Shown in pieces: positions 4,201 to 60,178 of a stretch of DNA of 64,000 nt. Position numbers and translations under genes: made by a program. The notes beneath the pieces were generated by a model, which was given only the letters and a program-made list of their open reading frames with translations, was not told where the DNA came from and did no database searches. Every line of letters starts with the position of its first letter. Positions within the stretch are counted from its first letter, which is position 1. The DNA is taken from the NCBI GenBank assembly GCA_027459665.1, contig DAIDHN010000001.1:72356-136355 (forward strand). The letters are read 5' to 3'. This stretch comes from Chthonomonadaceae bacterium. Lineage in GTDB: Bacteria; Armatimonadota; Chthonomonadetes; Chthonomonadales; Chthonomonadaceae.

Positions 4201-4356
4201 GGAGCCGCTGTTTCAGCCCCCCATGCTACTGATTCTCATGGAAAAACCATGCTGTTTGTGTTTCCACAAAAAGGAGCATCGGTTATTCGAATTACTCTGC
4301 GCAGCAGCAGCCTGCCGGGGGTGGTACGCATGATTAGCATTCAGCTGCAGAAATGA
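1231..4356 (+). CDS. Large secreted surface protein (about 1040 aa) with Big_1/invasin-like Ig repeats, Gly-rich linker and C-terminal transthyretin/CarboxypepD_reg-like domain
   Basis: Long ORF; start taken at ATG 1231 (AAAGGA 16 nt upstream) giving signal peptide MKQKLRYNALYLGNMLIFAVVPMVACAQSA; internal TDKGQFSNGSKQSVLQVDSEGRASETLSLQ resembles bacterial Ig-like domain 1; no catalytic motifs recognised. Confidence 0.6.
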   Translation: MKQKLRYNALYLGNMLIFAVVPMVACAQSAVSQIPHVIRIVPAHGKTLFPGTTLKGSTLQGSLTGEAARITVPAADFTSIPRRPPIPFVPFAMIDPSTGRAVLPGSNIRLANGKIVNAGSYYAALNQYEKILNASGYTLRKQGSYRTAYRVNYPLLAQQARMLDQQALRHPWIIPIQPALLARQITMARTLLLHPPVPHIVPPARHMHPAGIVKGVTVLPAVVLGSINSASPDQTPGMAVMQQVSPVVYAALHASAVTQGPSKGGKVQVLDAPLPGFYYPYNLDMGDPGTIGAYLHSYLDANGDKNSVTLEASADAGGYLLGNKIDVAGLQFHLDSSLGKKAKGTASFSLLGNTVKTYELALNNPQVNLDLIPPDDQNIQQDFFNATIMAGPVPVTIDVYGGIGLDAPLQVLTDIAQVNTAFTPAVSLNAGASVEIGVPGVLDAGVKCTVNVLTLSCPLNGAAALLPGSAGNGGTNAQDLGIYVNLTGDLDYTLLSGKFDVFADVTPLAHFETTIFHWPGYKNHISLFSVNHWYDLNTSVPPVLIDASAPGSIPSLNAPPQPAAVALNAIYLSTNAWTGKSNVENFITEGETVPSSRVYLTALVYDQFGNQMNASVPLTFTVNNQTIYPGSSGITIEPPQGGGEEQAAVSVNGTKIVRRLHFSFAASGAAFAPFQLVPDHGACFRTNTVTLTGPGNPLTSPIYFGSSQASILTPASVIASEAVNTAHNIEVQAPASAQPGFVPIGNMVTINGPETSTAMQPFSSLPQNYYYYVPNVPCLLLSQPGGLPNDYPLAETYPGYDTSFVTIPVALWDAAGTPETGESIVFQTDKGQFSNGSKQSVLQVDSEGRASETLSLQKNSAQTLGQVQGQAYTDIIPAHVTIRKQGGALVHLNVYFQYEPSAVSASSAGGAGNGAPSGLGTPAGGHGNGLPGHPAGGYQHGVRASAYLLRLPAAQTEKRQKAPFVLEVPVMLTHKNGQPAAGALVQALAAGAAVSAPHATDSHGKTMLFVFPQKGASVIRITLRSSSLPGVVRMISIQLQK

Positions 4357-6131
4357 AAATACAGCAAGGCATGGCTCTACTGTTTTTTTCTCTTTTCACG
4401 CAGCTTTCCTGGTCTCAGACTGCCCGGAATGGAGAAAAATTTCGGCAAGAGAATAAGGCGGTTGAGCAATGCTATTCTATGCAGTTCAGGCAGCGGGCAA
4501 AAACCAGCCTGGGGAATATAGATAGAAAGCTGGCTGGCAAAGACACCACAGTGCTGTTTTCTGTGAAGGGTGAATTCTGCACACTCCCTCTGGGACACAA
4601 CACGAAATGGGAACTGACAGGTGCCCGTTTTCTTATGCCAAAGGTACTGTTTTCGGTATCTGGGGTAGAAAACAAGCCTCTTGAAGAAGCGATTGCCCAT
4701 GATCTGCAAAAGCCCTTTTTACTGTACAGGACATCAAACAGGCAAATACATTCTTTTTATACCGCAGCTATTTCTCCGCTGAGCTGCCAGATGCTGCGCA
4801 CTATTCTGGGCCAAATGGAGTTTCTGCTGCCTGTTTCCCCGGCAGAAAAAGGGGAAGAGTGGAAAACAGAAGAAGAAAACGCAGAAGGAAAATACCAGGC
4901 GTGTTATGTTGTACAGAGCGGCTCTGCCAGACGGATTGCTGCAGAAAAGCGCATACTCTCCTACAGCTCTTTACGAAAGCATGTGCCACTTGCAGGAGTG
5001 AAAGTGCTTCTCCCCCGCCTGCTTCCATCGGGAACTGCTGAAGCTGTTTTTCAGAAGAGAGGCAGGGCGCTTCTTTCTTTGCAGAGCCTGCAATGCGTAA
5101 AAAGCACAATTGAGGGCGTACCGGGCGCTGTGGAATGGGATTCGCTGCAGATGAGACGCATCAGAACAGCGCCGGGTGCCTCTGCGCAGGGGTCTGTGCT
5201 GCCTGCACGTTTTCTACTTCTGCAAAAATCTTCTGCTCACCTGCTGTTTCGCGCTCCAGACTATACCCGGCAGCAGAAGGCGCTTGCCAAAACTGAGCTG
5301 GGAAGAGAAACTTTTTCCAGCCTGATGGAGAGAATGGCAGAAAAAGAAGCTGAAGGAGCCAGCGGCGCTCCTTCTCTGGTTATCCCTTTTCGGGCGCTGC
5401 TTCTGCTGCACCCTGCAGACATTGCACCATTACAACAGATTCTTGCCCAGGCAGACCCACACAGCCTTACTGCCCGCACCATAGCCAATGTGCTGCAGGC
5501 AACAGGCACGCGGCGGGCACAGGCCGCACTGTGCGATGTTCTTGTTGAGCGCCGGCAAGATACCCCTCTGTCTGCCATGCTGCTGCAATGGGCCGGCATG
5601 CTGGCTGCTCCCGATAAAGCCTCGCTGAATACTGTAAGGTGGTTTGCCCGAAATGCTCTGCATAGGGAAGTGCGGCAGCAGGCGCTTCTGGCCTACGGCG
5701 CTATGCTCAACGCCTATGCCTATCGGCGTCCTCATACGGCGGCTCTGCTTGTTTCGGCCTTATCGAATGAGTTTCCAAACGAATCGCCCACGGTTTTTCT
5801 GGAGGCTCTGGGGAATGCAGGAACTGCCGGAATTGTGCCTATTGCTGCCCCCTTTCTGCACAGCCCTCATGTGAATCTGCGGGTAGAGGCACTCTGCAGC
5901 CTTCGAAAAGTACTGTCTCAAAGGGTAAGAAGCATGCTGGCAGACAGGCTGCTTCACGACCCCAGTGCAGAGGTGCGCGCACAATGCGTACAGGTAATTG
6001 TTCTGCAAAAGGCAGTGCCGCTTCTGCAAACCAGCCTGCGAAAGGCGCTGAAAACTGAAAAGTCGCCCATGGTACGGCAGGAGATTCGTGCGGCGCTCAA
6101 GCAGACTTCCTTGTCTTCTCGAAACAGGTGA
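4353..6131 (+). CDS. Secreted HEAT/PBS-lyase-type repeat protein, translationally coupled to the upstream giant protein
   Basis: ATGA start/stop overlap at 4353-4356; N-terminal signal peptide MKIQQGMALLFFSLFTQLSWSQTA; C-terminal tandem helical repeats with ...EVRxxAxxAL... periodicity (HEAT-like). Confidence 0.55.
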   Translation: MKIQQGMALLFFSLFTQLSWSQTARNGEKFRQENKAVEQCYSMQFRQRAKTSLGNIDRKLAGKDTTVLFSVKGEFCTLPLGHNTKWELTGARFLMPKVLFSVSGVENKPLEEAIAHDLQKPFLLYRTSNRQIHSFYTAAISPLSCQMLRTILGQMEFLLPVSPAEKGEEWKTEEENAEGKYQACYVVQSGSARRIAAEKRILSYSSLRKHVPLAGVKVLLPRLLPSGTAEAVFQKRGRALLSLQSLQCVKSTIEGVPGAVEWDSLQMRRIRTAPGASAQGSVLPARFLLLQKSSAHLLFRAPDYTRQQKALAKTELGRETFSSLMERMAEKEAEGASGAPSLVIPFRALLLLHPADIAPLQQILAQADPHSLTARTIANVLQATGTRRAQAALCDVLVERRQDTPLSAMLLQWAGMLAAPDKASLNTVRWFARNALHREVRQQALLAYGAMLNAYAYRRPHTAALLVSALSNEFPNESPTVFLEALGNAGTAGIVPIAAPFLHSPHVNLRVEALCSLRKVLSQRVRSMLADRLLHDPSAEVRAQCVQVIVLQKAVPLLQTSLRKALKTEKSPMVRQEIRAALKQTSLSSRNR

Positions 6132-6207
6132 TTTTTTATACAGAGCGGCAAGGCACATTCAGCGGCCGAATGCCGGTGCATCATACCGCAACGCCCTTCC
6201 TGCTTTC

Positions 6208-7002
6208 TCAGCGAAGCCGGGCAGGGGCTGCTTCAATAGCCAAAGGGTGTTCCATTGCAAGCAGAATTCCGTGAAGTACATACCAGGGATGTGGCGGATG
6301 GCCAGGAACATAAATGGCAGTTGGCAGAATGGCATTCACCCCCTTTGCCTCTGCGTAGCTCCCCCTGTGCAGTCCGCCGGAAATGGCCGAAGCGCCTGCT
6401 GCAATTACCAGTCGCGGATCGGCCATCGCTTCGTAGCAGCGGCGCAGCGGTTCATGCATTGCACGTGCAACAGGGCCGGTGACTATCAGGGCATCGGCAA
6501 AGCGGGGAGACGCAACAAAATGGATGCCGAATCGGCTGGCATCAAAAACCGGGTTGTTTGAGGCTGCTATCTCCAGATCAGAGGCGCTGTCGCCTGTAGA
6601 AACCTCGCGCAGGTGAATCGAACGCCGAAACGGAGAGGTATGAGGTAACTGTGCAGGGCGTTGTGTAACTGCCTTGTTCGTCAAAATGAGTTCCTCCCGG
6701 CGCCGTACGGCAACTCTTGTACTCCTGTCTTCCACAATGGTTCCGGCAGGGCAGACGGCAGGGCAGCCATTGCATGCAATGCACCTCCCCAGGTCAATAG
6801 ATACCTGCCCGCCGGCGGGGCCGGGAGAAACCTGTATGGCTTCGGCAGGGCAGGCTTGCACGCAGGCGCTGCAGCCCTGATTAGCCGCGCAGGCTGTGTC
6901 TGTCAAGCCTGGCAGACCGCGGCTGTAGGCTGGCAGTGCGGGGAACATGGCGCGCTGTGTCGCATTCCCAGCAGATAGAAGCTGTATGAGTGTTTGTAAC
7001 AT
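6208..7002 (-). CDS. Ferredoxin (2x[4Fe-4S] motif) fused to a NuoB/[NiFe]-hydrogenase small-subunit-like domain that lacks all four cluster-binding cysteines (EhrS-like)
   Basis: N-terminal CxxCxxCxxxCP (CIACNGCPAVCP) and a variant Cx5CxxCxxxCP; C-terminal NuoB homology (SPRFADALIVTGPV, AAGASAISGG, YVPGHPPHP) where canonical CCxxE, GACA and GCPP read SA, SA and GHPP. Confidence 0.8.
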   Translation of the reverse strand: MLQTLIQLLSAGNATQRAMFPALPAYSRGLPGLTDTACAANQGCSACVQACPAEAIQVSPGPAGGQVSIDLGRCIACNGCPAVCPAGTIVEDRSTRVAVRRREELILTNKAVTQRPAQLPHTSPFRRSIHLREVSTGDSASDLEIAASNNPVFDASRFGIHFVASPRFADALIVTGPVARAMHEPLRRCYEAMADPRLVIAAGASAISGGLHRGSYAEAKGVNAILPTAIYVPGHPPHPWYVLHGILLAMEHPLAIEAAPARLR

Positions 7003-7020
7003 CCTTGCATCCTCTCTTCC

Positions 7021-8559
7021 TCAGAGGTCATTGCCGCTGTAGGAGAGACTGAAACTCTTGTTGCAAAGCGGAAAATCTGCCACCAGCTGGCCGCGCGCTG
7101 CAATGGCCAGCCCTGTCCAGTTATTAAAACTGGGGTCTTTTACGGCATAACGTGAAATGCTGCCATTCTCATCTGTAAAAACAAGGTGAATCAGTTCTCC
7201 CCGCCAGGCTTCAATTATTCCTGCACCAATGCTCCGGGGGGGCAGCTTGTCTGGAACAGGAACCCGAACGGTCTCCTCATTTGATACCCGCTTCAGAAAT
7301 GCATCGGCCAGCTGCAGGCTGGCTCGCGTCTCTTGCACCCGAATGCGTACACGCGCCAATACATCGCCTTCCTCCTCCACCGCAGCTTCCCAGGGCAGCC
7401 AAGCATACGGTTCCTGAAGGAATGCGTTGCGCACATCATAATCAACACCGCTGGCGCGCCCAGCTGGCCCAACCATACCGAAGTCGCGGGCAAGCGAGGG
7501 ACGCACCTTTCCCACCCCTTCCATGCGCTCCAATGCACCAGGGTTTTCCATCAGAATTGGCACAATACGCTCGAATTCCTTTGCAATACTTCTTACCGAG
7601 GCAGCCATCTGGTCTCTTGCCTGCAGAGAAATTGCATGCGCAACGCCGCCGGGCAAAATGTATGCTGTTTGCAAACGTGCGCCTGTCAACTGCTCTCCCA
7701 GCCCCAGCGCCCGTCCACGCAGGCATCCAAAAAGTGCAGCTCCCGCTGTAAAACCTATGTCGCTGCATATGCCTCCCAGGTCTCCAATATGCGATGCAGT
7801 GCGCTCTATCTCCAGCGAGAGAGCACGCAGGTTCTGAGCCGCTGCAGGGGGTGTAATTGCAAGTAACTGCTCCACAGCCATCGCATGCGCCCAGGCATTT
7901 GCTGCACTTGAATCACTGCTGATCGCTTCTGCCAGAAACCTTGCATGCTGCCAGGGGACTTCCGTCAGCTGCTGCTCTATCCCCCGGTGCTGGTATCCCA
8001 GCCGTATTTCAAGGTTCTGAATGACTTCTCCCAGGCAGCTGAAGCGAAAGTGCCCCGGTTCAATGATTCCCGCATGAATCGGCCCAACAGCAATCTCGTA
8101 CACTCCCTCTCCCTGCACAGTCAGGAATTTGCTGCTGCGGCGTGCAGGCGCATTCTCAGGTACAACCGGGTGGGCATCTCGCAGTGGATAAAATCCTTCT
8201 GGCCAGGCTTCATGCAGAATCACGCTTTTGAAACGCGGATGCCCCTCTGGCAGAATGCCGAAGAAATCAGAAACCGCCCGCTCAAACCAGTGCGCCTGCG
8301 GCACATGAGGGGTGAGCGAAGGGAATGCGGACTTTGCAGAATGCAGGGGAGTTTCCCACACATGCATGCCTGCATTCGCAGGATGCAAAACCAGCGTAAC
8401 AAGCGCCAAATCGTCTCCTGGCGGTATCCTCCTGGCTGTCAGCAAACCCAGCCGGCTTCCCTGCCTGAGCAGCATTGTCAGGCGTTCTTGCAGGCTGTCG
8501 AGCGGAACCAGCACTGGCTCAATGCCGGCGGGCTGCGGCAAAATCTCACCAGAATTCAT
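7021..8559 (-). CDS. NuoC-NuoD fusion / group-4 [NiFe]-hydrogenase large-subunit homologue without NiFe-binding CxxC motifs (EhrL-like)
   Basis: GPIHAGIIEPGHFRFSCLGEVIQNLEIRLGYQHRGIEQ matches the NuoD/HycE N-terminal signature; position of the RxCGxCxxxH motif reads AISSDSSAAN; C-terminal DPCxSC motif absent (DFPLCNKSF); ATGA overlap with upstream gene. Confidence 0.8.
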   Translation of the reverse strand: MNSGEILPQPAGIEPVLVPLDSLQERLTMLLRQGSRLGLLTARRIPPGDDLALVTLVLHPANAGMHVWETPLHSAKSAFPSLTPHVPQAHWFERAVSDFFGILPEGHPRFKSVILHEAWPEGFYPLRDAHPVVPENAPARRSSKFLTVQGEGVYEIAVGPIHAGIIEPGHFRFSCLGEVIQNLEIRLGYQHRGIEQQLTEVPWQHARFLAEAISSDSSAANAWAHAMAVEQLLAITPPAAAQNLRALSLEIERTASHIGDLGGICSDIGFTAGAALFGCLRGRALGLGEQLTGARLQTAYILPGGVAHAISLQARDQMAASVRSIAKEFERIVPILMENPGALERMEGVGKVRPSLARDFGMVGPAGRASGVDYDVRNAFLQEPYAWLPWEAAVEEEGDVLARVRIRVQETRASLQLADAFLKRVSNEETVRVPVPDKLPPRSIGAGIIEAWRGELIHLVFTDENGSISRYAVKDPSFNNWTGLAIAARGQLVADFPLCNKSFSLSYSGNDL

Positions 8560-10016
8560 CGCGCCACCCCCTCTGCTAGCGTGAAGGCCGCAGAAGTAAG
8601 CACCACTCCAAGCAGTAGCGAAGCAGTAAGCAGAATGCCCGGAATAACCATTGTTGAGAATACTGGAACAGCCTCAGACACCGCAGTTTTCTTTTTTGCC
8701 GGTGACTCTCCAAACACCATGCCTGCGATTCGCATGGATAGCGCAATAAATGCTATTGCCAATGCAGCGCATAATACAATTACTGTTATGATATGGCGCG
8801 TGTCTGCCGCTGTTGAAAGAATTTGCCACTCGGCAAGAAAGCTTCCAAAAGGAGGGGAACCGGCAACTGCAGCGGCCGCGACGAATAACAACACTGCTTG
8901 TAGCGGCTGCGCGTTCAATACCCCCCGAATATCCTGTATGGTCTTGGTGCCGTACTGCTGCAGCAGATTACCTGCCAAAAGAAAAAGCGCCGCTTTGACC
9001 AGGCTGTGATTGACTGCCTGAAGTGCAAACCCTGCGCTGGTACCAAGCGCTGCGGCCACCGCTATCAGGCCAACGTTTTCCATGCTGGAGTAGGCAAGCA
9101 TTCGTTTGAGATCGCGCTGCTTGAGCAAAAAAAGACTGGCTGCCAGAACCGTTGCCGCACCCATTGGCAAAAGCGTGATCTGAACAAACCTGCTTTCTCC
9201 TGCAGCAGCCATCAGGCTGCAGGTACGCCAGAGCGCTACAAGCGCACAGTTTAGCAGCGCACCCGATAGCATGGCGCTGGCAGGCGCCGGCGCTTCGCTG
9301 TGGGCATCTGGCAGCCAGCTGTGAAGCGGAAAGAGGCCAGCCTTTGTTCCATAACCAAGCAGGGTAAAAACAAACCCCAGGCGCAGCATGCTGTGTGAAT
9401 AGAGGCGTGCATGTTTTACCAGATATGCAAGTGAAAGGCTTCCTGTTGTTCCTGCGCCAACACGCTGTGATGCTGCGTAGAAAATTGCTGTGCCCAGAAA
9501 GGCGAACGCTATACCCACACTGCATATGATGAGGTATTTCCAGGTTGCTTCAAGAGATGTGCGAGAACGATGATGATAAACCAGCGGAGCCGACAGCAGA
9601 GTGGTTGCTTCCACCGAAATCCAGAGATAGCCCAGATTGTCTGCTGCCACAACAGCCACCATCGAAAGATAGAAAAGGGCGGCAAACAGGTAAAACATAC
9701 GCAGATCACGGTTTGAGGGCGCATGCTCAGATGCGGTTTCCCGCAGAAAAAACCCCACGGCATGGGTGAGAGCTGCTGCAACAATCAGGGTGGTAAGCAT
9801 TGCAAAGAGCGCCGCAGTGTTGTCAAGACGAAAGCCGTGTACAACAGGCGCCGTCTGGTGCGTGCCCAGGCGGGGCACACACACTGCCAAAACGACTGCC
9901 ATCTGCACCCACATCAAAACAGCGCTCAGGCGCAGCAGAGTAGAAGTTCTGCGAGACAGCAGCGCAGAAACCAGAATAAGCATGGGGCAGAGCAGCAAAG
10001 AGAGCAAAGCATTCAT
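8556..10016 (-). CDS. NuoN/NuoM/HyfF-like proton-translocating antiporter-type membrane subunit
   Basis: Polytopic membrane protein with signature WLPDAHSEAPAPASAMLSGALLNCALVALWR of the Mrp/NuoL-M-N family. Confidence 0.8.
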   Translation of the reverse strand: MNALLSLLLCPMLILVSALLSRRTSTLLRLSAVLMWVQMAVVLAVCVPRLGTHQTAPVVHGFRLDNTAALFAMLTTLIVAAALTHAVGFFLRETASEHAPSNRDLRMFYLFAALFYLSMVAVVAADNLGYLWISVEATTLLSAPLVYHHRSRTSLEATWKYLIICSVGIAFAFLGTAIFYAASQRVGAGTTGSLSLAYLVKHARLYSHSMLRLGFVFTLLGYGTKAGLFPLHSWLPDAHSEAPAPASAMLSGALLNCALVALWRTCSLMAAAGESRFVQITLLPMGAATVLAASLFLLKQRDLKRMLAYSSMENVGLIAVAAALGTSAGFALQAVNHSLVKAALFLLAGNLLQQYGTKTIQDIRGVLNAQPLQAVLLFVAAAAVAGSPPFGSFLAEWQILSTAADTRHIITVIVLCAALAIAFIALSMRIAGMVFGESPAKKKTAVSEAVPVFSTMVIPGILLTASLLLGVVLTSAAFTLAEGVAR

Positions 10017-10206
10017 TGAGTGTTTTGAGGCATGCCTCCTTCCTGTACAAATCAGGGTAGAAGGGCTGCATTCCTTTCTTTATTCGAAAAATACCCCGTT
10101 TCACCAGCCGCATTGCCTGGCACATACATGCCGAACATCCGTTTCGGCTGTGCATTTCCCCTCTTCTCAGCCAGCGAACCGGCGCCATGTTCTGTGCAGG
10201 GCATAT

Positions 10207-10836
10207 TCATCCTCTCAGCTGCTTCAATTCTGTTACATCGATGTGCTCAAAGCTGTCTCTAATGCGAAAGGTAAGCAGCCCGGCAAGCATGGTGCCGGCC
10301 AGAATATCCATCAGTACTCCCAGTTCTACAACAGGCGGCATTGAGTGAGGCTGTGCTATTGTGTAGAAGAATATGCCATTCTCCAGCACCAGAAACCCGA
10401 TTATCTGACTCACTGCGAGCCGGCGTGATACCATGAGCACCATTCCAATGAAGAGCATTCCTATGGTGGGAAGTGCGCTGGGCGCAATCTGCCGGCTGAA
10501 TGGATGCAGCAGCATGAGCGCCCCCAGAGCGCCTGCAGTTGCAAACAGAAGCAGGGGCGGTGCAAGCAGCAATCCTTCATCCCTGCGGCAGCCGAGACGT
10601 CGTACTACCCTGTTGAGGTAGACAGGAACGGCAACGCCCTTTAACAGCGCAACTGCTGTTCCTGCTGCAACCAGAGCAGGCTCTCCGTGCTGCTTTCCAA
10701 CCCAAATGGCCAGCAGGCCCAGTGTTACAGTTTGCAGGGCATAGAGCATCAGCTTGGAAGGCAGCTGGGTGAGTCCTGTCATCCACAATCCCAGCAGAAC
10801 GGTGCATGCAGCAACTGGACCAAACTCAAATGACAT
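10207..10836 (-). CDS. HyfE/hydrogenase-4 component E-like small membrane subunit
   Basis: 209-aa protein with about 6 TM helices, size and hydropathy like HyfE; embedded between NuoH-like and NuoN-like genes as in hyf operons. Confidence 0.6.
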   Translation of the reverse strand: MSFEFGPVAACTVLLGLWMTGLTQLPSKLMLYALQTVTLGLLAIWVGKQHGEPALVAAGTAVALLKGVAVPVYLNRVVRRLGCRRDEGLLLAPPLLLFATAGALGALMLLHPFSRQIAPSALPTIGMLFIGMVLMVSRRLAVSQIIGFLVLENGIFFYTIAQPHSMPPVVELGVLMDILAGTMLAGLLTFRIRDSFEHIDVTELKQLRG

Positions 10837-10842
10837 AATGAC

Positions 10843-11760
10843 CTATCCTTTCAACACCACTATCAGGTTTGCGATTATGCCCGCCGTGAGTGCAAACGAC
10901 AACAAACTGGGAATTTTTCGCCAGCGCAGTTTGACCAGTATCGATTCCATCAATGCCAGCGCCACACCTGCTGCCAGAATCAATCCCAGGCTCAGCAAGT
11001 AAGCCGTCACAGGTGAAAACGGGGGCAGCGCCATAAGCAGTACCCTGGCTATCAGCCCAAACAAAACAGTCATCTCAATGGCGGCGGCAAACTCTCTCAA
11101 TGCAAGATTTCTCCCAGAGTTTTCCAGAATGAGAGCCTCGTGTATCATTGTCAGTTCCAGGTGGGTAGTGGGATCGTCTACCGGCATCCTCGCCAGCTCT
11201 GCCGTAACCGCCAGCCAGAGCGCCGCAACTACCAAAAGAAGCACAAACAAATTCGCGCTGCCTGGCCCTGTCGCGAGAAACAGAGATACGCTGCTGCTGT
11301 GCGCATGAGCGGCAAGTGCAGCAAGTGCAATCACAACAGCCGGCTCGGCTGCAATTGAAACAGCGGCCTTGCGGCTTGCACCCAGCGCACCGAAAGATGA
11401 CCCTGCATCCAGCGCAGCCAGCTGGGTTACAAACTTTTCTACCGCCATTAAATAAATAATCAGAAAGAGATCGCCGGGCAGTGGAGCAGAAACACCGAGC
11501 CAGGGAATCATCAAGGCAGTACAAAGCATCACCGCTATGCTGATGATGGGGGCAAGACGAAACACACCGGTGGTTGTCTCACTGATGATTTCCCCCTTGC
11601 TAAATAGTTTCGCTATGTCCCAGAAGGGCTGCAGAAGCGGCGGTCCCTGCCGATTCAGAAACCGCGACTTGCTGAATTGTATCACCCCGGCAAGAAGCAG
11701 CGGCAGCGTGAGTGCATGAATAAGATAGAAGGCAAGCAATAAAATCGATGCGAACCTCAC
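10843..11760 (-). CDS. NuoH/HycD/HyfC-like membrane subunit
   Basis: FLNRQGPPLLQPFWDIAKLFSKGE (NuoH Q-x-R-x-GP...D..KL..KE motif) and C-terminal DDPTTHLELTMIHEALILENSG...LAL motif typical of HycD. Confidence 0.8.
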   Translation of the reverse strand: MRFASILLLAFYLIHALTLPLLLAGVIQFSKSRFLNRQGPPLLQPFWDIAKLFSKGEIISETTTGVFRLAPIISIAVMLCTALMIPWLGVSAPLPGDLFLIIYLMAVEKFVTQLAALDAGSSFGALGASRKAAVSIAAEPAVVIALAALAAHAHSSSVSLFLATGPGSANLFVLLLVVAALWLAVTAELARMPVDDPTTHLELTMIHEALILENSGRNLALREFAAAIEMTVLFGLIARVLLMALPPFSPVTAYLLSLGLILAAGVALALMESILVKLRWRKIPSLLSFALTAGIIANLIVVLKG

Positions 11761-13745
11761 CGGGTAAATCCTCCAATGGCAAGCAGCAGCAGCAGCGTAC
11801 CAAACATGGTGAGCAGATAGAGGTGAATGCTCCCCGCCTGCATTTGCACGATCCAGTCTCCGGCACGGTCTACCCAGCGCACAAGCGGGTGATAAATACG
11901 TGTTTCAAGCACCGCCCCCGTCTTTGTTTCCACAGTGATCTCTTCTGGAAAAAGACGCCTGTTTACTCCATCAATATGAAGGTGAATAGCATAGCGGTAA
12001 AATGCACTGAACATTCGCGCAATCGGCTGTGCAAAACTGCCTGAGGCAACCTGCATTCGGGGCGTCAGGTCTCCAAAGCCGCATTCCCATGTAATAAACT
12101 TTCTCACCGGCTGGCGGCGGGCAGCGCTCTCCATCCACATTGCAATTCCCCCTGTGGTAAAAACCAGAAGAAGCGCCAGCATTGGCATCGGCAGTGTCCA
12201 GACAGATGCGAGAGGGACTGCATTCGGTGCAAGCGGAGTGACGAGCCGCTGCAGAATACTCAGTGCCAGCGGCACGGCAAGCCCCAGGCCGGCACAACCT
12301 GCTGCGAGCAGACCCTGCGCCAGCAGCATTCCCCTGCTCGCTTCTTTGGCCTCTTCTGCGGCTCTGGTACGCGGACGTCCCTGAAAAGCTACTCCGAGTG
12401 CGCGGGTATAGCACGCCAGAGAGAGTACGCCAACCAGGGCAGTTTGGCCGATCATAAGTACACCGCAGCAGCGCAGCAGGGGGGTTGTCCCTTGGGCAGC
12501 AATATGCAGTGACCCCTGGTAGAGCAGCCACTCTGCGGCAAAACCATTGAGAGGCGGCAGGCCGCATATGGCAGCAGCGCCCAGAATAAAAAGGCCGAAG
12601 GTATAGGGCATGCGCTTCCCCAGCCCTCCCAGTTTCGTTAGATCACGCGTGTGGGTACGCAGGTCTACCGAGCCTGCCCCGAGGAACAGCAGCGATTTGA
12701 AAAGCGCATGGTTGAGAATTTGAAAGAGTGCGGCGGCAGCACCCAGCTGAACAGCCCCCGCAACCCCCAGAAATCTTGCCGATATTGCCCCGCCTATGCC
12801 GATGAGAATAAGGCCGACGTTCTCAACTGTCGAGTAGGCAAGAATCCGCTTGATGTCTTCCTGAATCAGCGCAAAGAGAATTCCCCAGACAGCAGAGACC
12901 GAACCGAGGATAAGCAAAATGTAGCCGAACGCCGGATGTGCAAATGCCCTGGAAAACAGAAACAGACGCACGATTGCATAGAGAGCCGTCTTGACCATAA
13001 CACCGCTCATCAGGGCAGACACAGGAGATGGCGCAGCAGGGTGGGCAGCGGGCAGCCAGAGGTGAAAGGGCCACATTCCGGCTTTCACGCCCAAACCGGT
13101 CAGAAGAAGAAGCCCCGGCCCAAGAGCGCGAACCCCTGCAAGATGCCAGTTTTGAAATACCCAGCTGCCCGTGAGTGCATGCGCCCAGAGGAATCCACCT
13201 GCCAAAAAGGCAGTACCAACACGAGTAGCGCCCAAATAGACAAGCGCTGCCTGCCGGGTAGAGGCATTGCGATGGTCTGTTGCTACCAGCAGAAACGAAC
13301 TCAGCGACATAACCTCCCAGGCAATCAGAAAAGTGAGCGCGTTTGCAGCGAGGACTACCAGCGCCATGCTGAGCAGCAGCAGCGGAAGCGCTGTCCAGAA
13401 GACACGCATGTCGGTGCGCGTTTTCATATGCTCCATATAGTCATGAAGGTAGAACGCTGCCGGCCCGCTGGAAAGAGCAATGACAGCCAGAAACCAGGCA
13501 GCCAGCATGTCAAGGTGAAAGGCGATGGGAGCAGTGCCCAAAAAGAAGGGGAGAGGAAGCGTTAGAGATTCTGGCCGAGCATATAAAACAGTAACAGCAG
13601 CGCCCAGCAGGGTAAGCGCCCCCAAACCGATGAGAGCGCTCCATGCACGCCGATGAGTATGCTGCCCATCAAACAAGGCGGCCAGCGGCAGTACAAGCCA
13701 AAACAGAGCAGCGGCACCGAGAAACAGGTGAGAAAGTGGAGGCAT
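11757..13745 (-). CDS. NuoL/HyfB/HycC-like large antiporter-type membrane subunit
   Basis: 662-aa polytopic protein with LWLPAAHPAAPSPVSALMSGVMVKTALYAIVRL signature of the NuoL family; 4-nt overlap with downstream gene. Confidence 0.8.
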   Translation of the reverse strand: MPPLSHLFLGAAALFWLVLPLAALFDGQHTHRRAWSALIGLGALTLLGAAVTVLYARPESLTLPLPFFLGTAPIAFHLDMLAAWFLAVIALSSGPAAFYLHDYMEHMKTRTDMRVFWTALPLLLLSMALVVLAANALTFLIAWEVMSLSSFLLVATDHRNASTRQAALVYLGATRVGTAFLAGGFLWAHALTGSWVFQNWHLAGVRALGPGLLLLTGLGVKAGMWPFHLWLPAAHPAAPSPVSALMSGVMVKTALYAIVRLFLFSRAFAHPAFGYILLILGSVSAVWGILFALIQEDIKRILAYSTVENVGLILIGIGGAISARFLGVAGAVQLGAAAALFQILNHALFKSLLFLGAGSVDLRTHTRDLTKLGGLGKRMPYTFGLFILGAAAICGLPPLNGFAAEWLLYQGSLHIAAQGTTPLLRCCGVLMIGQTALVGVLSLACYTRALGVAFQGRPRTRAAEEAKEASRGMLLAQGLLAAGCAGLGLAVPLALSILQRLVTPLAPNAVPLASVWTLPMPMLALLLVFTTGGIAMWMESAARRQPVRKFITWECGFGDLTPRMQVASGSFAQPIARMFSAFYRYAIHLHIDGVNRRLFPEEITVETKTGAVLETRIYHPLVRWVDRAGDWIVQMQAGSIHLYLLTMFGTLLLLLAIGGFTR

Positions 13746-13747
13746 TC

Positions 13748-14215
13748 CTACTGCTCCTCTTCTGGGGAGACATCAGAGGGGGATGCCTGCAGGCGAATCT
13801 CTGTCAGCATTTCTGTTACCTCACTGAGATGTTCCTCAAAGTAGAGTCGCATTATGTCAAGCACTTCAGTGAGCCGATGACTGCGCAGCGAATAGAAAAC
13901 CTGATTTCCTTCCTTACGATTAACAACAATCTGCCTGGCGCGCAACACGGCCAAATGCTGCGATGCATTTGCCTGCTCTACCCCCAGCCTTTCCAGAATA
14001 GCGCCTGCCGACACCTCATCTTCACGAAGTATTTCTACAATAGCGATTCGCGTGGGATGCGCCAATGCCTGAAAAATGTCCGCCTTAAATCGCTGCAATG
14101 CATTCTGCATAACCGCCTGCCTCTCTTGCCCATAGGGCATGCTTTGCTGTAGCTGCTGACAACTGAATAGCGCTCCCAATTGCCCTTGGGCAGCCCTTAT
14201 GCCGATGCATGGCAT
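13748..14215 (-). CDS. ArsR/SmtB-family HTH transcriptional regulator, first gene of the Ehr-like operon (alternative start at 14140)
   Basis: FQALAHPTRIAIVEILREDEVSAGAILERLGVEQANASQHLAVLRARQIVV = ArsR winged-helix signature; no metal-sensing Cys motifs; stop lies 2 nt before the NuoL-like start. Confidence 0.75.
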   Translation of the reverse strand: MPCIGIRAAQGQLGALFSCQQLQQSMPYGQERQAVMQNALQRFKADIFQALAHPTRIAIVEILREDEVSAGAILERLGVEQANASQHLAVLRARQIVVNRKEGNQVFYSLRSHRLTEVLDIMRLYFEEHLSEVTEMLTEIRLQASPSDVSPEEEQ

Positions 14216-14221
14216 GTATTA

Positions 14222-14258
14222 TGTATTAGTATACCATAATTTTCAAATATTCTAAAAA
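14222..14258 (-). promoter_or_regulatory. Putative sigma70-type promoter of the arsR-ehr operon (-35 TTTAGA, 17-nt spacer, -10 TATACT) overlapping an AATATTC-N8-GAATATa inverted repeat
   Basis: Read on minus strand: TTTAGAatatttgaaaattatggTATACT about 9 nt before the ATG at 14215; inverted repeat at 14246-14267. Confidence 0.4.
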
Positions 14259-14407
14259 TCGAATATACTTATAATCTGTAGAAACTGCGTTGTCTACAGG
14301 TTCAATAAAAAGCGCGCCCGCAGCAGCAAACTCTCCCCATGTTTTGCGTCGCTGCAGGTACAATATTCTTCATAACCTATTCGTCAAAATTGACTAGAGG
14401 AACTGCC

Positions 14408-22222: not shown

Positions 22223-23041
22223 ATGCTTACCAGCAATCAGCTATCTGAATTCAGGGAAATTGGGTTTTTGCATGTGGGGCGCGTTATGAGCGATGATGAA
22301 GCAGACACGCTGTGCCGCCGCATGCATGCAGTGGCAGACGGCCAGCAGGAAGGCGCAGAAGCTGTGCGCAACCTGAACGGAGATCAGGAAAACATAGTTG
22401 TTCAGATTGTAAACATCTGGCAGGCCGATCCTCTCTTTCGCCAGCACCTTTACCACCCGGAAATTACTGCCATGGCAGCCGAATTGATGCAGGCCGGCAC
22501 AGTGCGTGTATGGCACGACCAGGTGCAGTACAAGCCGCCGCGCACAGGCGGCCCTACCTACTGGCACCAGGATCACCCCTACTGGCCGGTTATTCAGCCG
22601 GCAGACCTTGTGAGCTGCTGGGTGGCGCTGGATGATGCTGATGAAGAAAACGGCTGCATGTGGATGGTGCCCCACAGCCACCACTTCGGCCCATACTGCG
22701 GAGGAACCATAGGCACCAACACCACTACCTGGATGCCAGCCCCCGATCAGGAGAGCCTCTCTTCAGGTTTGGAGGTAAATGCCGTACCCTGCCCGGTACG
22801 CAAGGGCCATGCGCTGTTTCACCACTGCCTTACCTGGCATGGCGCCCGCCCAAACCGCACGGAGCGCGGCAGGCCGGCCATTGCAGTGCACTATATGCCT
22901 GGCTGGACCCGTTATGAAAAAGAGCCTGGCAAAGCGCATCTGGTAGAACATCACATCACAGTAAAGCCGGGGGAAATTCTGCAGGGTGAAGGGTTTCCCA
23001 CAGTGTGGGAAAACGGAAAGCCCTGCCCCTCCCCGCGCTAG
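22223..23041 (+). CDS. Phytanoyl-CoA dioxygenase (PhyH) family Fe(II)/2-oxoglutarate oxygenase
   Basis: VWHDQVQYKPPRTGGPTYWHQDHPYWP (HxD iron-binding dyad) and distal His region. Confidence 0.7.
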   Translation: MLTSNQLSEFREIGFLHVGRVMSDDEADTLCRRMHAVADGQQEGAEAVRNLNGDQENIVVQIVNIWQADPLFRQHLYHPEITAMAAELMQAGTVRVWHDQVQYKPPRTGGPTYWHQDHPYWPVIQPADLVSCWVALDDADEENGCMWMVPHSHHFGPYCGGTIGTNTTTWMPAPDQESLSSGLEVNAVPCPVRKGHALFHHCLTWHGARPNRTERGRPAIAVHYMPGWTRYEKEPGKAHLVEHHITVKPGEILQGEGFPTVWENGKPCPSPR

Positions 23042-32666: not shown

Positions 32667-32745
32667 TGTTTGCAGGAACTGTTTTGCCTGCCTGATGCGT
32701 TATAGGGCTGTTAGGTGATCTACTACCTTGTCTGGAGAAAATTGC

Positions 32746-34167
32746 ATGACTGCCGAAAGCATTGGGCTGGTATGGTTTCGAGGAGGACTGCGACTGCAGG
32801 ACAACAGCTGCTTTCATACCGCGCTAAAAGAAAACAGGCAGGTTTTCTGCTGCTTTATACTGGATGACCATTATATGCGCGGCCCGGACATTGGCGCAGC
32901 AAGAGCCTGCTTTCTGCTTGAAACCCTTGCCCTGCTTGATCAAAGTCTGCAAAAACTAGGCGCACAGCTTATTGTGCGCCGTACGGCCGACGCTGTTCAT
33001 GAAATAGCGGCGCTGGCGCATGAGGTTGGGGCAGCACGCGTTTACGCAAACCAAGACTACCTGCCCTACCCTCTGCGCCGCGATGCACAGGTGCAGGAAC
33101 TGCTGCGCAGCGATGGCAGGCAGCTGTGCCTGCACGAAGACCTGCTGCTGGTACCGCCCCGGCTGGTGCTCACTGCGCAGGAGACCCCCTACACGGTATT
33201 CACGCCGTTCAAGCGCAAATGGGAAACTCTGCTGCAAACCCCCTCCAGATACCAGAGCGAGCCTCTGCTGCACAAACTGAAAACAGATAAGCGTTTCCCC
33301 TCTTCCTCTGTACCTGAGCTATCCGAATATGGCATGAGCCTGAAGCAGAATATTGAGCCGGGCGGAGAAGAGAGGGCGCTGCAGCAGCTTGAACGCTTTG
33401 TGAGCAGCGGCCTGCCCGAATACCATCTAAATCGCGACCAGTGCGCCTTGCTGCACTCTACCTCTCGCCTTTCTATGCATCTGAAATGGGGCACGCTTTC
33501 CATTAGAGACTGCTACCGTGCGGCACGGAGGCAGGGAGGGCCGGGCGCGGATAAATGGATTGATGAACTAGCCTGGCGCGAGTTTTTTTACTCAGTAACC
33601 TACCACTTTCCCCATACGCTGCAAGGACCCATGCTGCCCGAATACAAAGACTTTCCGTGGAGCGATAATCAGGAACACCTGCAAGCCTGGAAAACGGGAA
33701 ATACAGGCATTCCATTTGTAGATGCCGGCATGCGCCAGCTCAACCAGACAGGCTGGATGCACAACCGCCTGCGCCAGGTGACTGCCTCCTATTTGTGCAA
33801 AGACCTGCTGATTCACTGGCAGGAAGGTGAACGCTACTTTATGCAGATGCTGGTAGACGGCGACTGGCCCTCAAACAACGGCGGCTGGCAGTGGGTTTCA
33901 GGCAGCGGAGTAGACCCCCGCCGCGCTACGCGAATATTCAACCCCATTCTGCAGCAGGAACGCTATGACCCAGATTTCGCCTACGTGCGGCAGTGGGTGG
34001 AAGAATTCGGCACTGCCCGCTACCCCCTGCACCCCCTGGTCACTCACGAAGAAGGCCGCCGATGCTACCTGGATGCGTTTCAGCGCTCAGCGGCAGGCAG
34101 GCAGGCGCTGCGCGAACAACACCGGGAAACTGCTGCACAAAGCAGGCAGAATCGGCTGTTCGAGTAG
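32746..34167 (+). CDS. phr: Deoxyribodipyrimidine photolyase / cryptochrome family FAD protein
   Basis: FTPFKRKWE, LAWREFFY and TGIPFVDAGMRQLNQTGWMHNRLRQVTASYL...GGWQWVSG FAD-binding motifs; GGAGAAAA RBS before ATG 32746. Confidence 0.85.
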   Translation: MTAESIGLVWFRGGLRLQDNSCFHTALKENRQVFCCFILDDHYMRGPDIGAARACFLLETLALLDQSLQKLGAQLIVRRTADAVHEIAALAHEVGAARVYANQDYLPYPLRRDAQVQELLRSDGRQLCLHEDLLLVPPRLVLTAQETPYTVFTPFKRKWETLLQTPSRYQSEPLLHKLKTDKRFPSSSVPELSEYGMSLKQNIEPGGEERALQQLERFVSSGLPEYHLNRDQCALLHSTSRLSMHLKWGTLSIRDCYRAARRQGGPGADKWIDELAWREFFYSVTYHFPHTLQGPMLPEYKDFPWSDNQEHLQAWKTGNTGIPFVDAGMRQLNQTGWMHNRLRQVTASYLCKDLLIHWQEGERYFMQMLVDGDWPSNNGGWQWVSGSGVDPRRATRIFNPILQQERYDPDFAYVRQWVEEFGTARYPLHPLVTHEEGRRCYLDAFQRSAAGRQALREQHRETAAQSRQNRLFE

Positions 34168-51429: not shown

Positions 51430-51502
<73 letters not shown>

Positions 51503-58654: not shown

Positions 58655-60178
58655 TTACAACGAGGCATGCTTCGTAGGCGGAGCATTCTTTTTGAATATA
58701 TAGTAAATGTAGCTGGTTGGCGTAAGTTCAAACGTATGCGCCAGATGATAGTACGCCGACCAGCGAACCCCCTGGGCATTTGCTGCCGCCTTTACATGGT
58801 CCAGTTCTCCAGGGCGCAAAATGCACCAGGTGGGCTGGTAAGCCATGGCAATATCATAGGGCGGATACACCGATTTGCTGTTGTAGTAACGCAGTACCTG
58901 CGGGGATACAAGCCCGATCACATCAAGCACTTTCATACCCGAATAATAGCCCACATAGCCTATTGGCTCAAGCATGACCACATCGCCTTTTTGGGCATGA
59001 CTGCGCAGCCATAGGCCCATTGGTTTGCGAACGGCATCTTCCACTTTCTGATCGAGATACAGTACTCTGCAAGAATAGCCGAAGCAGGCCAGAGTCAGCA
59101 GAACAGCAAAAGCTGGAGCTGCTTTTGCAAGGCTGGCAGCGCTGTTTTTTATGCCATTGTGTACAAAACTAATGCCAAAAGAACCAAGCAGATACAAAAC
59201 AGGCAGAGGCGGCACAAGGTACCACGTAAAAAGCAGTATGCGCGAAATAACAAAGCTGCCCCAGTACACCATAAGCCAGGCAAGAGGCCAGAGAACATCG
59301 TATGATTTTTTGCACAGCAGGCTGTACACGCCAAGTATGCCGGCAATGGTAAATGGCGCCCCGTAGGGAAAACCGAAAAAAACCTGAACAAGCCTGGGAA
59401 TTTGCGGAAAGCGCCGAAGAATGGGGTTGGCCAGATGATCTGCACGCCAACCGTATACCGTAGATTTGGCGAAGGCGGTGCCGGGCAGAGGGGTGCCGTA
59501 CCAATGCCATGCTGCCAGCAGAAACGGCGCAAGAATCGCCAGCGTGATCAGCGCCTGTCTCACAGGCATCTTGCCGGTATTGCGCCACAACTGCAGCAAA
59601 ACGAGAAAAACTATCAGCAGCGCGTCCCATCGAATCAGCACAACCACCGCCGCCGCTATTGGCCAGAGCGCAGTTTCGCCCTCCAGTGCAAGAACCCATA
59701 AAAGCGTTCCACCCAGGGTCACGAGGCCGGTTTCCATGCCCGAAACCGCCCAGTTCATCTGCAATGGGCAGATGCAGGCCAGAAAAGCAGCAGTCAAGCC
59801 TGTTTTTCTGTCGCCGCCAAGCGCAAGCGCCCAGCGATAGAGCAATGGGCACAACAACGAGTCGGCCGCAATGTTGAGCAGTTTTCCCAGTATGGGGGCA
59901 GGCAGTTTTAGCCAGGCAAATGCGGCCAGAATGAGCGTATAGAGCGGTGTTGTGGTGCCAAGCACCCACTGATGCGGGTTGAATACCAGCCCTCTGCCGT
60001 GAGCAAGATTGTCTGCATAGCGCAGAGTAATCAGAAAATCCTCGCTGGTGAAACGGGTTGAAAGCATTAATGCTATTCGCAGTACAGCGGCCAAAACAGT
60101 AAGCCGCCAGACAAGCGGCGGAAGTGAGCGGGGACCGTAGAGCAGTTTTTTCAGGGTCTGCAGCATTTTATCATTCAT
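58655..60178 (-). CDS. Polytopic membrane glycosyltransferase (GT39/GT83 ArnT/PMT-like fold)
   Basis: 507 aa, about 12 TM helices, N-terminal SEDFLITLRYADNLAHGRGLVFNP loop motif resembling the DE/DxxY loop of ArnT-family enzymes. Confidence 0.45.
   Translation of the reverse strand: MNDKMLQTLKKLLYGPRSLPPLVWRLTVLAAVLRIALMLSTRFTSEDFLITLRYADNLAHGRGLVFNPHQWVLGTTTPLYTLILAAFAWLKLPAPILGKLLNIAADSLLCPLLYRWALALGGDRKTGLTAAFLACICPLQMNWAVSGMETGLVTLGGTLLWVLALEGETALWPIAAAVVVLIRWDALLIVFLVLLQLWRNTGKMPVRQALITLAILAPFLLAAWHWYGTPLPGTAFAKSTVYGWRADHLANPILRRFPQIPRLVQVFFGFPYGAPFTIAGILGVYSLLCKKSYDVLWPLAWLMVYWGSFVISRILLFTWYLVPPLPVLYLLGSFGISFVHNGIKNSAASLAKAAPAFAVLLTLACFGYSCRVLYLDQKVEDAVRKPMGLWLRSHAQKGDVVMLEPIGYVGYYSGMKVLDVIGLVSPQVLRYYNSKSVYPPYDIAMAYQPTWCILRPGELDHVKAAANAQGVRWSAYYHLAHTFELTPTSYIYYIFKKNAPPTKHASL

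Follow-up and report, generated by a model that had tools for sequence, protein, structure and literature searches.

An Ehr-family operon of a Chthonomonadaceae bacterium without cysteine ligands at the Ni-Fe and proximal [4Fe-4S] positions

We analysed a 64-kb stretch of DNA from a Chthonomonadaceae bacterium (contig DAIDHN010000001.1), hereafter the window, to which all genomic-context negatives reported below apply. At 6208-14215 on its minus strand lie seven open reading frames (ORFs), all intact and all in the same direction, which almost certainly encode a complex of the Ehr family. Members of this family are related to group-4 hydrogenases, lack the Ni-Fe cysteines and are described as being of unknown function (PMC6349859, PMC10284858, PMC7894505, PMC10432482, PMC7304191). 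In the large subunit, EhrL, all four Ni-Fe cysteines are replaced, and for this reason the operon product cannot be a [NiFe]-hydrogenase. The small subunit, EhrS, also has no cysteine at the ligand positions of the proximal [4Fe-4S] cluster. Judged from the alignments, this loss is a derived feature of the clade to which the operon belongs and not a general Ehr trait, and the same clade keeps both [4Fe-4S] clusters of the HycF-like domain. Our preferred explanation, whose chances we consider evenly balanced, is a functional Ehr variant in which an ion-translocating module carries a non-redox or redox-sensing cap. The parts of the operon are as follows (aa, amino acids; nt, nucleotides).

13748-14110, minus: arsR, first gene, Rv0081-type ArsR/SmtB regulator; the longest ORF extends to 14215, and translation probably starts at M36 (14110), for a product of 120 aa
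11757-13745, minus: ehrA, NuoL/HyfB/HycC-like antiporter-type subunit, 662 aa (Pfam Proton_antipo_M, 6e-58)
10843-11760, minus: ehrB, NuoH/HycD-like subunit, 305 aa (Pfam NADHdh, 2.6e-32)
10207-10836, minus: ehrC, HyfE-like membrane subunit, 209 aa, with a NuoK-like C-terminal half (PRK11492, 1.8e-18, below cutoff)
10017-10206, minus: ehrC-ehrD spacer, 190 nt, the sole loose junction in the operon
8556-10016, minus: ehrD, NuoN/HyfF-like antiporter-type subunit, 486 aa (Pfam Proton_antipo_M, 3.1e-49)
7021-8559, minus: ehrL, fusion of NuoC-like and NuoD/HycE-like parts, 512 aa (Complex1_49kDa, 5.1e-39; Complex1_30kDa, 8.4e-14)
6208-7002, minus: ehrS, fusion of ferredoxin and NuoB/HycG-like parts, 264 aa (Oxidored_q6, 8.7e-19; Fer4_7, 6.8e-8)
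6673-7002, minus: N-terminal HycF/NuoI-like 2x[4Fe-4S] domain of ehrS, residues 1-110 (Fer4_7, 6.8e-8; HycF, 1.5e-10)
6253-6630, minus: C-terminal NuoB/HycG-like domain of ehrS, residues 125-250 (Oxidored_q6, 8.7e-19; HycG, 2.4e-25; MbhJ, 2.9e-25)

Cofactor sites of the large and small subunits

EhrL was closer in sequence to E. coli HycE (226 bits) than to Thermus NuoD (119 bits), and its fold, compared by Foldseek using an AlphaFold2 (AF2) model, had its best match in 7z0s_E (HycE; E=3.8e-29, compared to 1e-22 for E. coli NuoCD). A grouping inside complex I NuoD, which the original prediction had named as an outcome that would speak against it, was thus not seen. Residue-level alignment to the CxxC...CxxC motifs of E. 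coli HycE placed S214, S217, S506 and G509 at the four Ni-Fe ligand positions. Neither the L1 (RxCGxCxxxH) nor the L2 (DPCxxCxxR/H) cysteines of group-4 hydrogenases were present in EhrL, and its score against Pfam NiFeSe_Hases (21.3 bits) was below the 25.8 cutoff. The 120 closest large subunits, which come from independent assemblies and are 50-76% identical, read STSG in 109 cases and SSSG in 4 at the ligand columns, and none of them had a cysteine there. The neighbouring Ser215 aligned with the quinone-ligating Tyr of complex I (Thermus Nqo4 Y87; alignment to 2fug_4).

The pocket around these positions has remained under strict conservation. The relatives being at most 76% identical, synonymous sites have likely reached saturation, and constraint was therefore measured by per-site entropy and not by dN/dS. 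Two pocket segments, residues 159-172 and 495-512 (GPIHAGIIEPGHFR and DFPLCNKSFxLSYSGNDL), were invariant in 115 clade members, with a median entropy of 0.0 bits compared to 1.34 for the whole protein, and the proton-relay-type loop HAGIIEPGHFR was invariant as well. Four clade-specific changes adjoin the old active site (W109R, H182N, His221 to Asn and Tyr/Phe225 to His), His221 being the histidine of the former RxCGxCxxxH motif. All four were found in 7/7 sampled cluster-less clade members and are rare elsewhere, and the changes at 221 and 225 set the pocket of this clade apart from that of other Ehr large subunits. The single-chain AF2 model of EhrL had a pTM of 0.80, with pLDDT <50 at residues 111-189 and 482-512.

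In EhrS, alignment to HycG, MbhJ, NuoB and 70 small subunits from the fetched loci (71 sequences including the query) placed D138, S141, S205 and H235 at the proximal [4Fe-4S] ligand positions. The claim of the original prediction that the catalytic metal ligands are missing therefore held at both sites, and frame or sequencing error, which it had offered as a possible cause, is excluded by the same ligand state in 120 + 120 independent homologues. Cysteine occupied the third and fourth ligand positions in 64 of the 71 aligned small subunits; outside the query clade it was missing at these positions only in L020, L007, L023 and the truncated L040. The four-cysteine proximal site, typical of most Ehr loci (we do not claim that it formally defines the family) and kept by nearly all sampled loci outside the query clade, is lost in the window EhrS. 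The latter fell within a monophyletic, mainly Armatimonadota clade without the proximal ligand cysteines, the named relatives being metagenome-assembled genomes (MAGs) of Chthonomonadaceae and Capsulimonadaceae. Among the 120 closest EhrS proteins, the number of proximal-site cysteines was 0 in 94, 1 in 15, 2 in one, 3 in ten and 4 in none.

The former ligand positions were among the most variable of the NuoB-like domain (domain median 0.52 bits), position 235 ranking 2/125 in variability with D, H, S, N, C, A, F and Y as residues. A search for a relocated Fe-S site found no clade-specific conserved set of Cys/His in EhrL or EhrS; only C189 of EhrS was new. W240 of EhrS likewise belongs to the clade-specific changes. 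Given this hypervariability and the lack of a relocated Cys/His set, the proximal site has decayed stepwise and is now without constraint, and the two ferredoxin-type clusters are strongly constrained. All eight cysteines of the ferredoxin domain (38, 44, 47, 51, 74, 77, 80 and 84) were present in 118/120 closest homologues and were essentially invariant (zero entropy) within a domain of median 1.58 bits. The AF2 model of EhrS was confident (pLDDT 94.4, pTM 0.91), and its NuoB half superposed on HycG at 1.1 Å over 127 columns.

Cluster loss occurred independently at least twice elsewhere, in the planctomycete L020 and in a large Ehr clade whose operons begin with the small subunit (L007/L009/L023). 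The small subunits of this latter clade (L007, L009, L017, L023; Thermoleophilia, Candidate Phyla Radiation (CPR), Syntrophales) had no ferredoxin domain and showed strictly conserved T, C, D, D at the proximal positions (one Cys; e.g. L023:4062-4667; proteins P0241-P0360), which may represent a different metal site or a cap without any Fe-S. Across the 83 fetched Ehr loci (L001-L083), which served as the sample for all locus comparisons, the ferredoxin domain had eight cysteines, four to five (e.g. Desulfobulbaceae, Acidobacteriota) or none, and the proximal site had 4, 3, 1 or 0. The Fe-S complement of the Ehr cap is thus evolutionarily labile family-wide.

Family assignment, membrane arm and signs of selection

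ORF calls together with Pfam and NCBIfam searches bore out the seven co-directional genes originally described, from arsR to the ferredoxin-NuoB fusion (the HyfE-like one by NCBIfam, below cutoff). Their spacing was tight or overlapping as claimed, except at the ehrC-ehrD junction: from arsR to ehrS there are a 2-nt gap, a 4-nt overlap, a 6-nt gap, the 190-nt gap, a 4-nt overlap and an 18-nt gap. Locus L081 has a 225-nt spacer at the same place, and its sequence is not conserved; with no conservation towards L081 and no Rfam match, a small gene or RNA in the spacer was rejected. Pfam supported six of the seven assignments above threshold (for ArsR, HTH_20 at 6.3e-11 and HTH_5 at 2.7e-7). Support for EhrC came from NCBIfam PRK11492 (HyfE) and Oxidored_q2 (NuoK/MrpC-type, 1.6e-4), both below cutoff, and a PDB search with it gave no solved relative.

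Every operon score against the NCBIfam equivalog models, Hyf and NuoD/NuoB included, was under the curated cutoff (e.g. EhrA at 534 bits against a cutoff of 667 for hydrogenase-4 subunit B, and EhrD at 342 bits for hydrogenase-4 subunit F), so that the operon proteins are relatives, not orthologues, of the Hyf and Nuo subunits. The best PDB matches were HycC for EhrA (7.7e-59), HycD for EhrB (2.7e-26; MbhM 6.6e-20), HycE for EhrL (5.6e-66) and HycG and HycF for EhrS (2.4e-25 and 1.5e-10). EhrD matched MbsH (4.4e-35) and MbhH (5.5e-30). No hyp, formate dehydrogenase or nuoEFG genes were found in the 64-kb window, in line with the earlier statement that no maturation, formate dehydrogenase or complex I peripheral genes accompany the operon. 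Nor was a second NuoB-like gene found anywhere in the window, either within the operon, where the earlier note had considered that one might supply the missing cysteines, or outside it.

The assignment to Ehr rests on a HycE-related large subunit without CxxC motifs, on the NuoL/NuoH/HyfE/NuoN/large/small gene set and its order, on sequence motifs and on the fit to the literature description, and the Ehr-type identity first proposed was thereby upheld. EhrL carries the family motifs HAG[IV]IEPGHFR and [CI]NKSFxLSYSGNDL (as HAGIIEPGHFR and CNKSFxLSYSGNDL), a signature derived in the present analysis and not taken from the literature. A motif search (HAGIIEPG, CNKSF[SGN]LSY) of one-genome-per-species contigs yielded at least 590 confirmed stretches. 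Among the matches listed were Armatimonadota, Acidobacteriota, Desulfobacterota (including cable bacteria), Nitrospirota, Planctomycetota, Verrucomicrobiota, Chloroflexota, Firmicutes, Melainabacteria, CPR and archaea. The gene order L-H-E-N-large-small was nearly universal in the 83 loci, a minority having the small subunit first. One Nitrospirota genome has two Ehr operons in tandem (L047:2-4260 and 4321-11987).

According to the papers that cite them (PMC7894505, PMC4758237, PMC6349859), Coppi 2005 and Marreiros 2013 defined the Ehr class by comparative genomics. The original prediction that Ehr complexes are known only in this way was right as to their lack of an assigned function and slightly too strong otherwise, since Geobacter Ehr subunits have been detected in proteomes, where they rise on formate (PMC7894505), and transcriptional regulation is documented for Rv0081-Rv0087 of M. 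tuberculosis (PMC6901956, PMC6728331).

No redox partner recurred beside the Ehr genes. When the 785 neighbouring ORFs of the 83 loci were clustered, only regulators and antisense artefacts recurred, and no dehydrogenase or hydrogenase-maturation gene did so. A pairing of formate dehydrogenase with Ehr (PMC6349859) accordingly found no support in the 83-locus sample or in the window. In three Desulfobulbaceae/cable-bacteria loci (L011:3529-4701, L018:3335-4483, L016:3-896) a gene of about 390 aa lies directly 5' of ehrA in the same direction. Its product gave a match to LCIB-type beta-carbonic anhydrase that is below cutoff (E=9e-4), with a Cys/His/Cys spacing that by eye resembles the LCIB type; the gene was found in 3/83 loci and was absent from the window and the other 80. 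In a Capsulimonadaceae MAG (L082:897-4068), three genes oriented divergently to arsR-ehr resemble, as a set, a sensory hydrogenase module: one for a [FeFe]-hydrogenase-like protein of 582 aa (Fe_hyd_lg_C), one for a 2Fe-2S thioredoxin-like protein and one for a SpoIIE phosphatase.

The membrane arm retained the charged residues of the family. These are E144, K221, K252, H346, K350 and E405 in EhrA and E136, K225, K341 and E396 in EhrD (all family-invariant), the acidic chain E139, E188, D195, E202, E208 and E272 in EhrB, and the invariant K66 and E152 in EhrC. The canonical TM5 Glu, TM7 Lys and TM12 Lys are present in both EhrA and EhrD. EhrB positions 131 and 229 are E and K in 46-47 of 48 other aligned loci and in E. 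coli HycD; in this genome only, they carry the reciprocal swap E131K + K229E, which suggests a compensated, conserved salt bridge. With more than 100 independent full-length relatives at 50-76% identity, the operon is intact and shows selection throughout.

The Ehr complex of Geobacter sulfurreducens (GSU0739-0745; EhrA-1/A-2, B, C, D, L, S) shares with the window the subunit set and order, a large subunit without Ni-Fe cysteines and an operon without a dedicated maturation gene or partner dehydrogenase; it differs, as do some other loci, in having two NuoL-like genes where the window has one. E. coli Hyf and Hyc (formate hydrogenlyase (FHL)-1, PDB 7Z0S) are the closest solved relatives of five components, and the window fits the order hyfB-C-(D)-E-F-G-H-I, the hyf/hyc arrangement that had been recognised from the start. 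Unlike Hyf and Hyc, the window operon has no Ni-Fe site, proximal cluster, HycB/HyfA, FdhF or nearby hyp/hycI, and its HycF and HycG parts are fused. Pyrococcus Mbh and Mbx/Mbs (6CFW, 6U8Y) are likewise complex-I-related membrane modules, with good matches to EhrD, EhrB and EhrS, but they possess a full three-cluster wire and an Mrp-type Na+ module (MrpB/C/E/F/G-like) which the window lacks. MbsL and EhrL are both large subunits of the hydrogenase type that have been put to another use, in a reaction not involving H2.

Complex I has homologous NuoB, C, D, H, L and N modules with the antiporter Glu/Lys residues and the NuoH acidic chain conserved, whereas the window has no N2 cluster, no NuoE/F/G, no separate NuoA/J/K/I and Ser215 in place of the quinone Tyr. 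In Mrp antiporters (7QRU, 6Z16), the MrpA/D-type subunits are homologous to EhrA (1.8e-44) and EhrD (9.3e-26) and share the TM5 Glu, TM7 Lys and TM12 Lys; equivalents of MrpB/C/E/F/G are absent from the window, and the large cytoplasmic cap kept in Ehr is missing from Mrp. Mrp, DabAB and CupA/B are precedents for complex-I-type membrane modules without electron transfer, the last two differing from the window in their carbonic-anhydrase-like subunit, of which no counterpart is present in the window.

Possible roles of the complex

The electron route of FHL, Mbh and complex I leads from the HycF/NuoI clusters by way of the proximal or N2 cluster into the pocket. In the window complex this canonical wire, from the ferredoxin domain by way of the proximal cluster to the EhrL pocket, would be broken, and the pocket would be without electrons by the usual route. 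Since the proximal cluster is gone and nothing conserved stands in its place, it is quite likely that the EhrL pocket receives no wired electron delivery. The output of the complex would be translocation of H+ and/or Na+ via the antiporter-like subunits, an output that we favour to about the same extent as we doubt it, because few parts of the complex are as conserved as the pocket segments and the membrane-arm charges. Coupling or gating without redox chemistry would take place at a site formed by the metal-free pocket and the NuoH-like EhrB. For the ferredoxin-type clusters that remain, we envisage either a structural role or one as a sensor or gate responding to the redox state of cellular ferredoxin, the redox-sensing role being a tentative suggestion. 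It is also conceivable, if on balance doubtful, that the Ehr scaffold in the query clade, and perhaps in all Ehr complexes, works without electron transfer into the former catalytic pocket, as a redox-independent or redox-gated ion translocator or as a gradient-powered non-redox enzyme. On this view, coupling or ligand binding would fall to the invariant metal-free pocket and redox sensing to the ferredoxin-type clusters, and homology would carry the view over to the dormancy-linked Rv0081-Rv0087 complex of M. tuberculosis.

Several points weigh against an ion-translocating module with a non-redox or redox-sensing cap. The eight strictly kept ferredoxin cysteines are most simply understood as a working electron-transfer module, which fits a redox enzyme better than a pure antiporter, and the operon has none of the MrpB/C/E/F/G-type subunits of true Mrp antiporters. 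The ten clade members with 3/4 proximal ligands could still hold a cluster, so that its loss may be tolerated and not mechanistically informative. The most conserved EhrL pocket segments are modelled at low confidence in the single chain, and we therefore draw no structural conclusion on the pocket. The proposed lack of an electron path would follow, by homology, from the geometry of FHL and complex I. Finally, the literature gives Ehr only as "function unknown", with no activity-defining experiment (PMC10284858, PMC10432482).

The strongest rival is an ion pump still driven by redox chemistry, of the Mbx/Mbs or complex I kind, in which reduced ferredoxin would deliver electrons to the 2x[4Fe-4S] domain and from there to an acceptor in or near the EhrL pocket by an alternative path. 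Such a path could be a non-cysteine-ligated cluster, a bound organic cofactor or an acceptor docking at the ferredoxin domain. The invariance of the eight ferredoxin-domain cysteines is its best argument, and the invariant proton-relay-type loop HAGIIEPGHFR, the complete three-cluster wire in nearly all other fetched Ehr loci, the ten members with most of their proximal ligands and the rise of Geobacter Ehr subunits on formate (PMC7894505) are also in its favour. Even so, we regard the pump, with any of these paths, as unlikely. The best counter-argument is that the four former ligand positions are hypervariable, the residues at 235 being incompatible with conserved alternative ligands; no new conserved Cys/His cluster exists in EhrL or EhrS and no partner gene recurs near the 83 loci. 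The known geometry of FHL and complex I would also imply a tunnelling distance about twice as long once the proximal cluster is removed. A pocket that is invariant whatever the Fe-S status, in a family whose Fe-S content is so labile (8, 4-5 or 0 ferredoxin Cys; 4, 3, 1 or 0 proximal Cys), would suit an enzyme powered by an ion gradient, in which the metal-free pocket binds or converts a substrate such as CO2/bicarbonate and the antiporter-like arm supplies the energy. DabAB and the CO2-hydrating CupA/B modules of cyanobacterial NDH-1 are precedents for this arrangement, and the LCIB-type match (E=9e-4, below cutoff) in the gene 5' of three Desulfobulbaceae/cable-bacteria loci points the same way. 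That match is, however, sub-threshold, the gene is confined to 3/83 loci and not in the window, and the pocket has no recognisable ligand-binding motif; as the proposal is drawn from analogy alone, we find it improbable, more so than the redox pump.

That two cofactor sites have been lost, and that Geobacter Ehr was treated as non-functional in one paper (PMC13194489), would fit a decaying relic of a group-4 hydrogenase or FHL operon with no present function. The seven intact ORFs with two 4-nt overlaps and the more than 100 full-length relatives at 50-76% identity speak against decay, which is confined to the four former ligand positions. A relic is very unlikely given the invariant pocket, the kept transmembrane charges, the compensatory charge swap and the confident EhrS fold. 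Public annotations of relatives as "Ni,Fe-hydrogenase III large subunit" or "NADH-quinone oxidoreductase subunit C" invite the further view that the operon encodes a genuine [NiFe]-hydrogenase/FHL or a complex I fragment whose ligands are masked by sequencing, frame or alignment error. The HycE and HycG alignments refute this, placing non-Cys residues at each ligand position, with the same result in the 120 + 120 independent homologues; with NCBIfam scores below cutoff, Ser215 at the quinone Tyr and no hyp, fdh or nuoEFG in 64 kb, such masking has next to no probability.

Named about twenty years ago, Ehr complexes are spread over many phyla and hundreds of species, among them Geobacter, nitrifiers, cable bacteria, CPR and M. 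tuberculosis. We know of no function assigned to them. Neither the family nor the question of its function is new, and the window operon is a clear member that is unsurprising as a gene cluster. Its value is as a natural experiment that narrows the possible roles of Ehr: in the query clade nature has in effect knocked out the final cluster of the electron wire and kept the other functional elements under strong selection, which constrains the activity of pocket and membrane arm to one that needs no electrons via the proximal cluster. In the literature covered, from which the two founding papers were absent, we found no description of clade-wide stepwise proximal-cluster loss with ferredoxin-cluster retention, of the EhrL remodelling at 221 and 225 or of the cross-phylum linkage to an Rv0081-type regulator described below. 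If Ehr complexes do work without electrons entering the pocket, their interpretation would change, including that of the hypoxia-regulated, dormancy-linked Rv0081-Rv0087 of M. tuberculosis with the same regulator type, and the complex I superfamily would gain a redox-independent member. If they do not, what the clade offers would be a cofactor site of an unusual, non-cysteine kind.

Regulator, upstream region and neighbouring genes

The best PDB match of ArsR was M. tuberculosis Rv0081 (6JMI; E=1.6e-16, full length, 38% identity), followed by a match at 2.2e-11, and NCBIfam NF033788 was matched at 1.6e-24. The protein is 82% identical to the 118-aa first gene product of L081. Its 120-aa form is Cys-free, with EVSAGAI in place of the ELCVCD metal box and the alpha3/alpha5 metal sites missing. 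Ehr-linked ArsRs from Armatimonadota, Rokubacteria, Omnitrophota and M. tuberculosis had 35-47% mutual identity, were all Cys-free and shared the signature FKA[ED][IF]F[KQ]ALAHPxRI. Two candidate control elements lie upstream.

14218-14246, minus: sigma-70-like promoter candidate TTGAAA-17-CATAAT, selected by 10/12 consensus matches only
14273-14302, no strand: inverted repeat with 10-nt arms, AATCTGTAGA-N10-TCTACAGGTT, candidate operator directly upstream of the promoter candidate

The promoter candidate overlaps the start of the longest arsR ORF. Because of this overlap, and because the length fits the 118-aa gene of L081, the true ArsR is probably the 120-aa form. The inverted repeat falls between the divergently oriented arsR and G6PD genes. 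Independently of metals, Rv0081 represses its own locus, rv0081-rv0088, via an inverted repeat upstream of its operon (10.1101/465575), and it serves as a hypoxia hub (10.1101/465575, PMC6901956). The parallel with Rv0081 makes it probable that expression of the window operon is autorepressed and responds to stress or hypoxia.

The genes downstream of Rv0081 are regarded as an EHR complex (PMC6728331). The "hyc-like" Rv0081-Rv0087 operon resembles that of the window in having an ArsR-type first gene ahead of a hyc-like membrane complex; it differs in that the small subunit Rv0082 comes first, as in L031/L069/L023, and has no fused ferredoxin domain (gene list in PMC6901956). A Mycobacterium small subunit was not among the 120 best matches to the Thermoleophilia-type EhrS, and a literature search for Rv0082 together with iron-sulfur and hydrogenase found nothing. 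As Rv0081-type ArsRs lead Ehr operons across phyla including that of M. tuberculosis, the regulator and the complex form an ancient unit present in several phyla. The ArsR noted in the original prediction is indeed the first gene, yet its presence there is not incidental, since this type of regulator travels with Ehr.

Other loci had other regulators. A co-directional gene for a HTH_17 (MerR/excisionase-type) protein of about 235 aa, whose class is not that of the query clade's ArsR, lies upstream in 11 loci (L020:1858-2565, L039, L040, L046, L055, L056, L062, L066, L074, L077 and L078), and pairs of a sensor kinase and a sigma-54-type response regulator were seen near others.

In the window, the operon is flanked by G6PD and unrelated proteins. 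Genes for a PhyH-type dioxygenase, a DNA photolyase and a nitronate monooxygenase (22223-23041, 32728-34167 and 60175-61200) suggest an organism exposed to O2 and light. Chemoreceptors and T2SS-F paralogues are each encoded twice in the window, which also holds genes for several large DUF proteins of glycoside-hydrolase-like type and a single tRNA at 51430-51502 on the minus strand.

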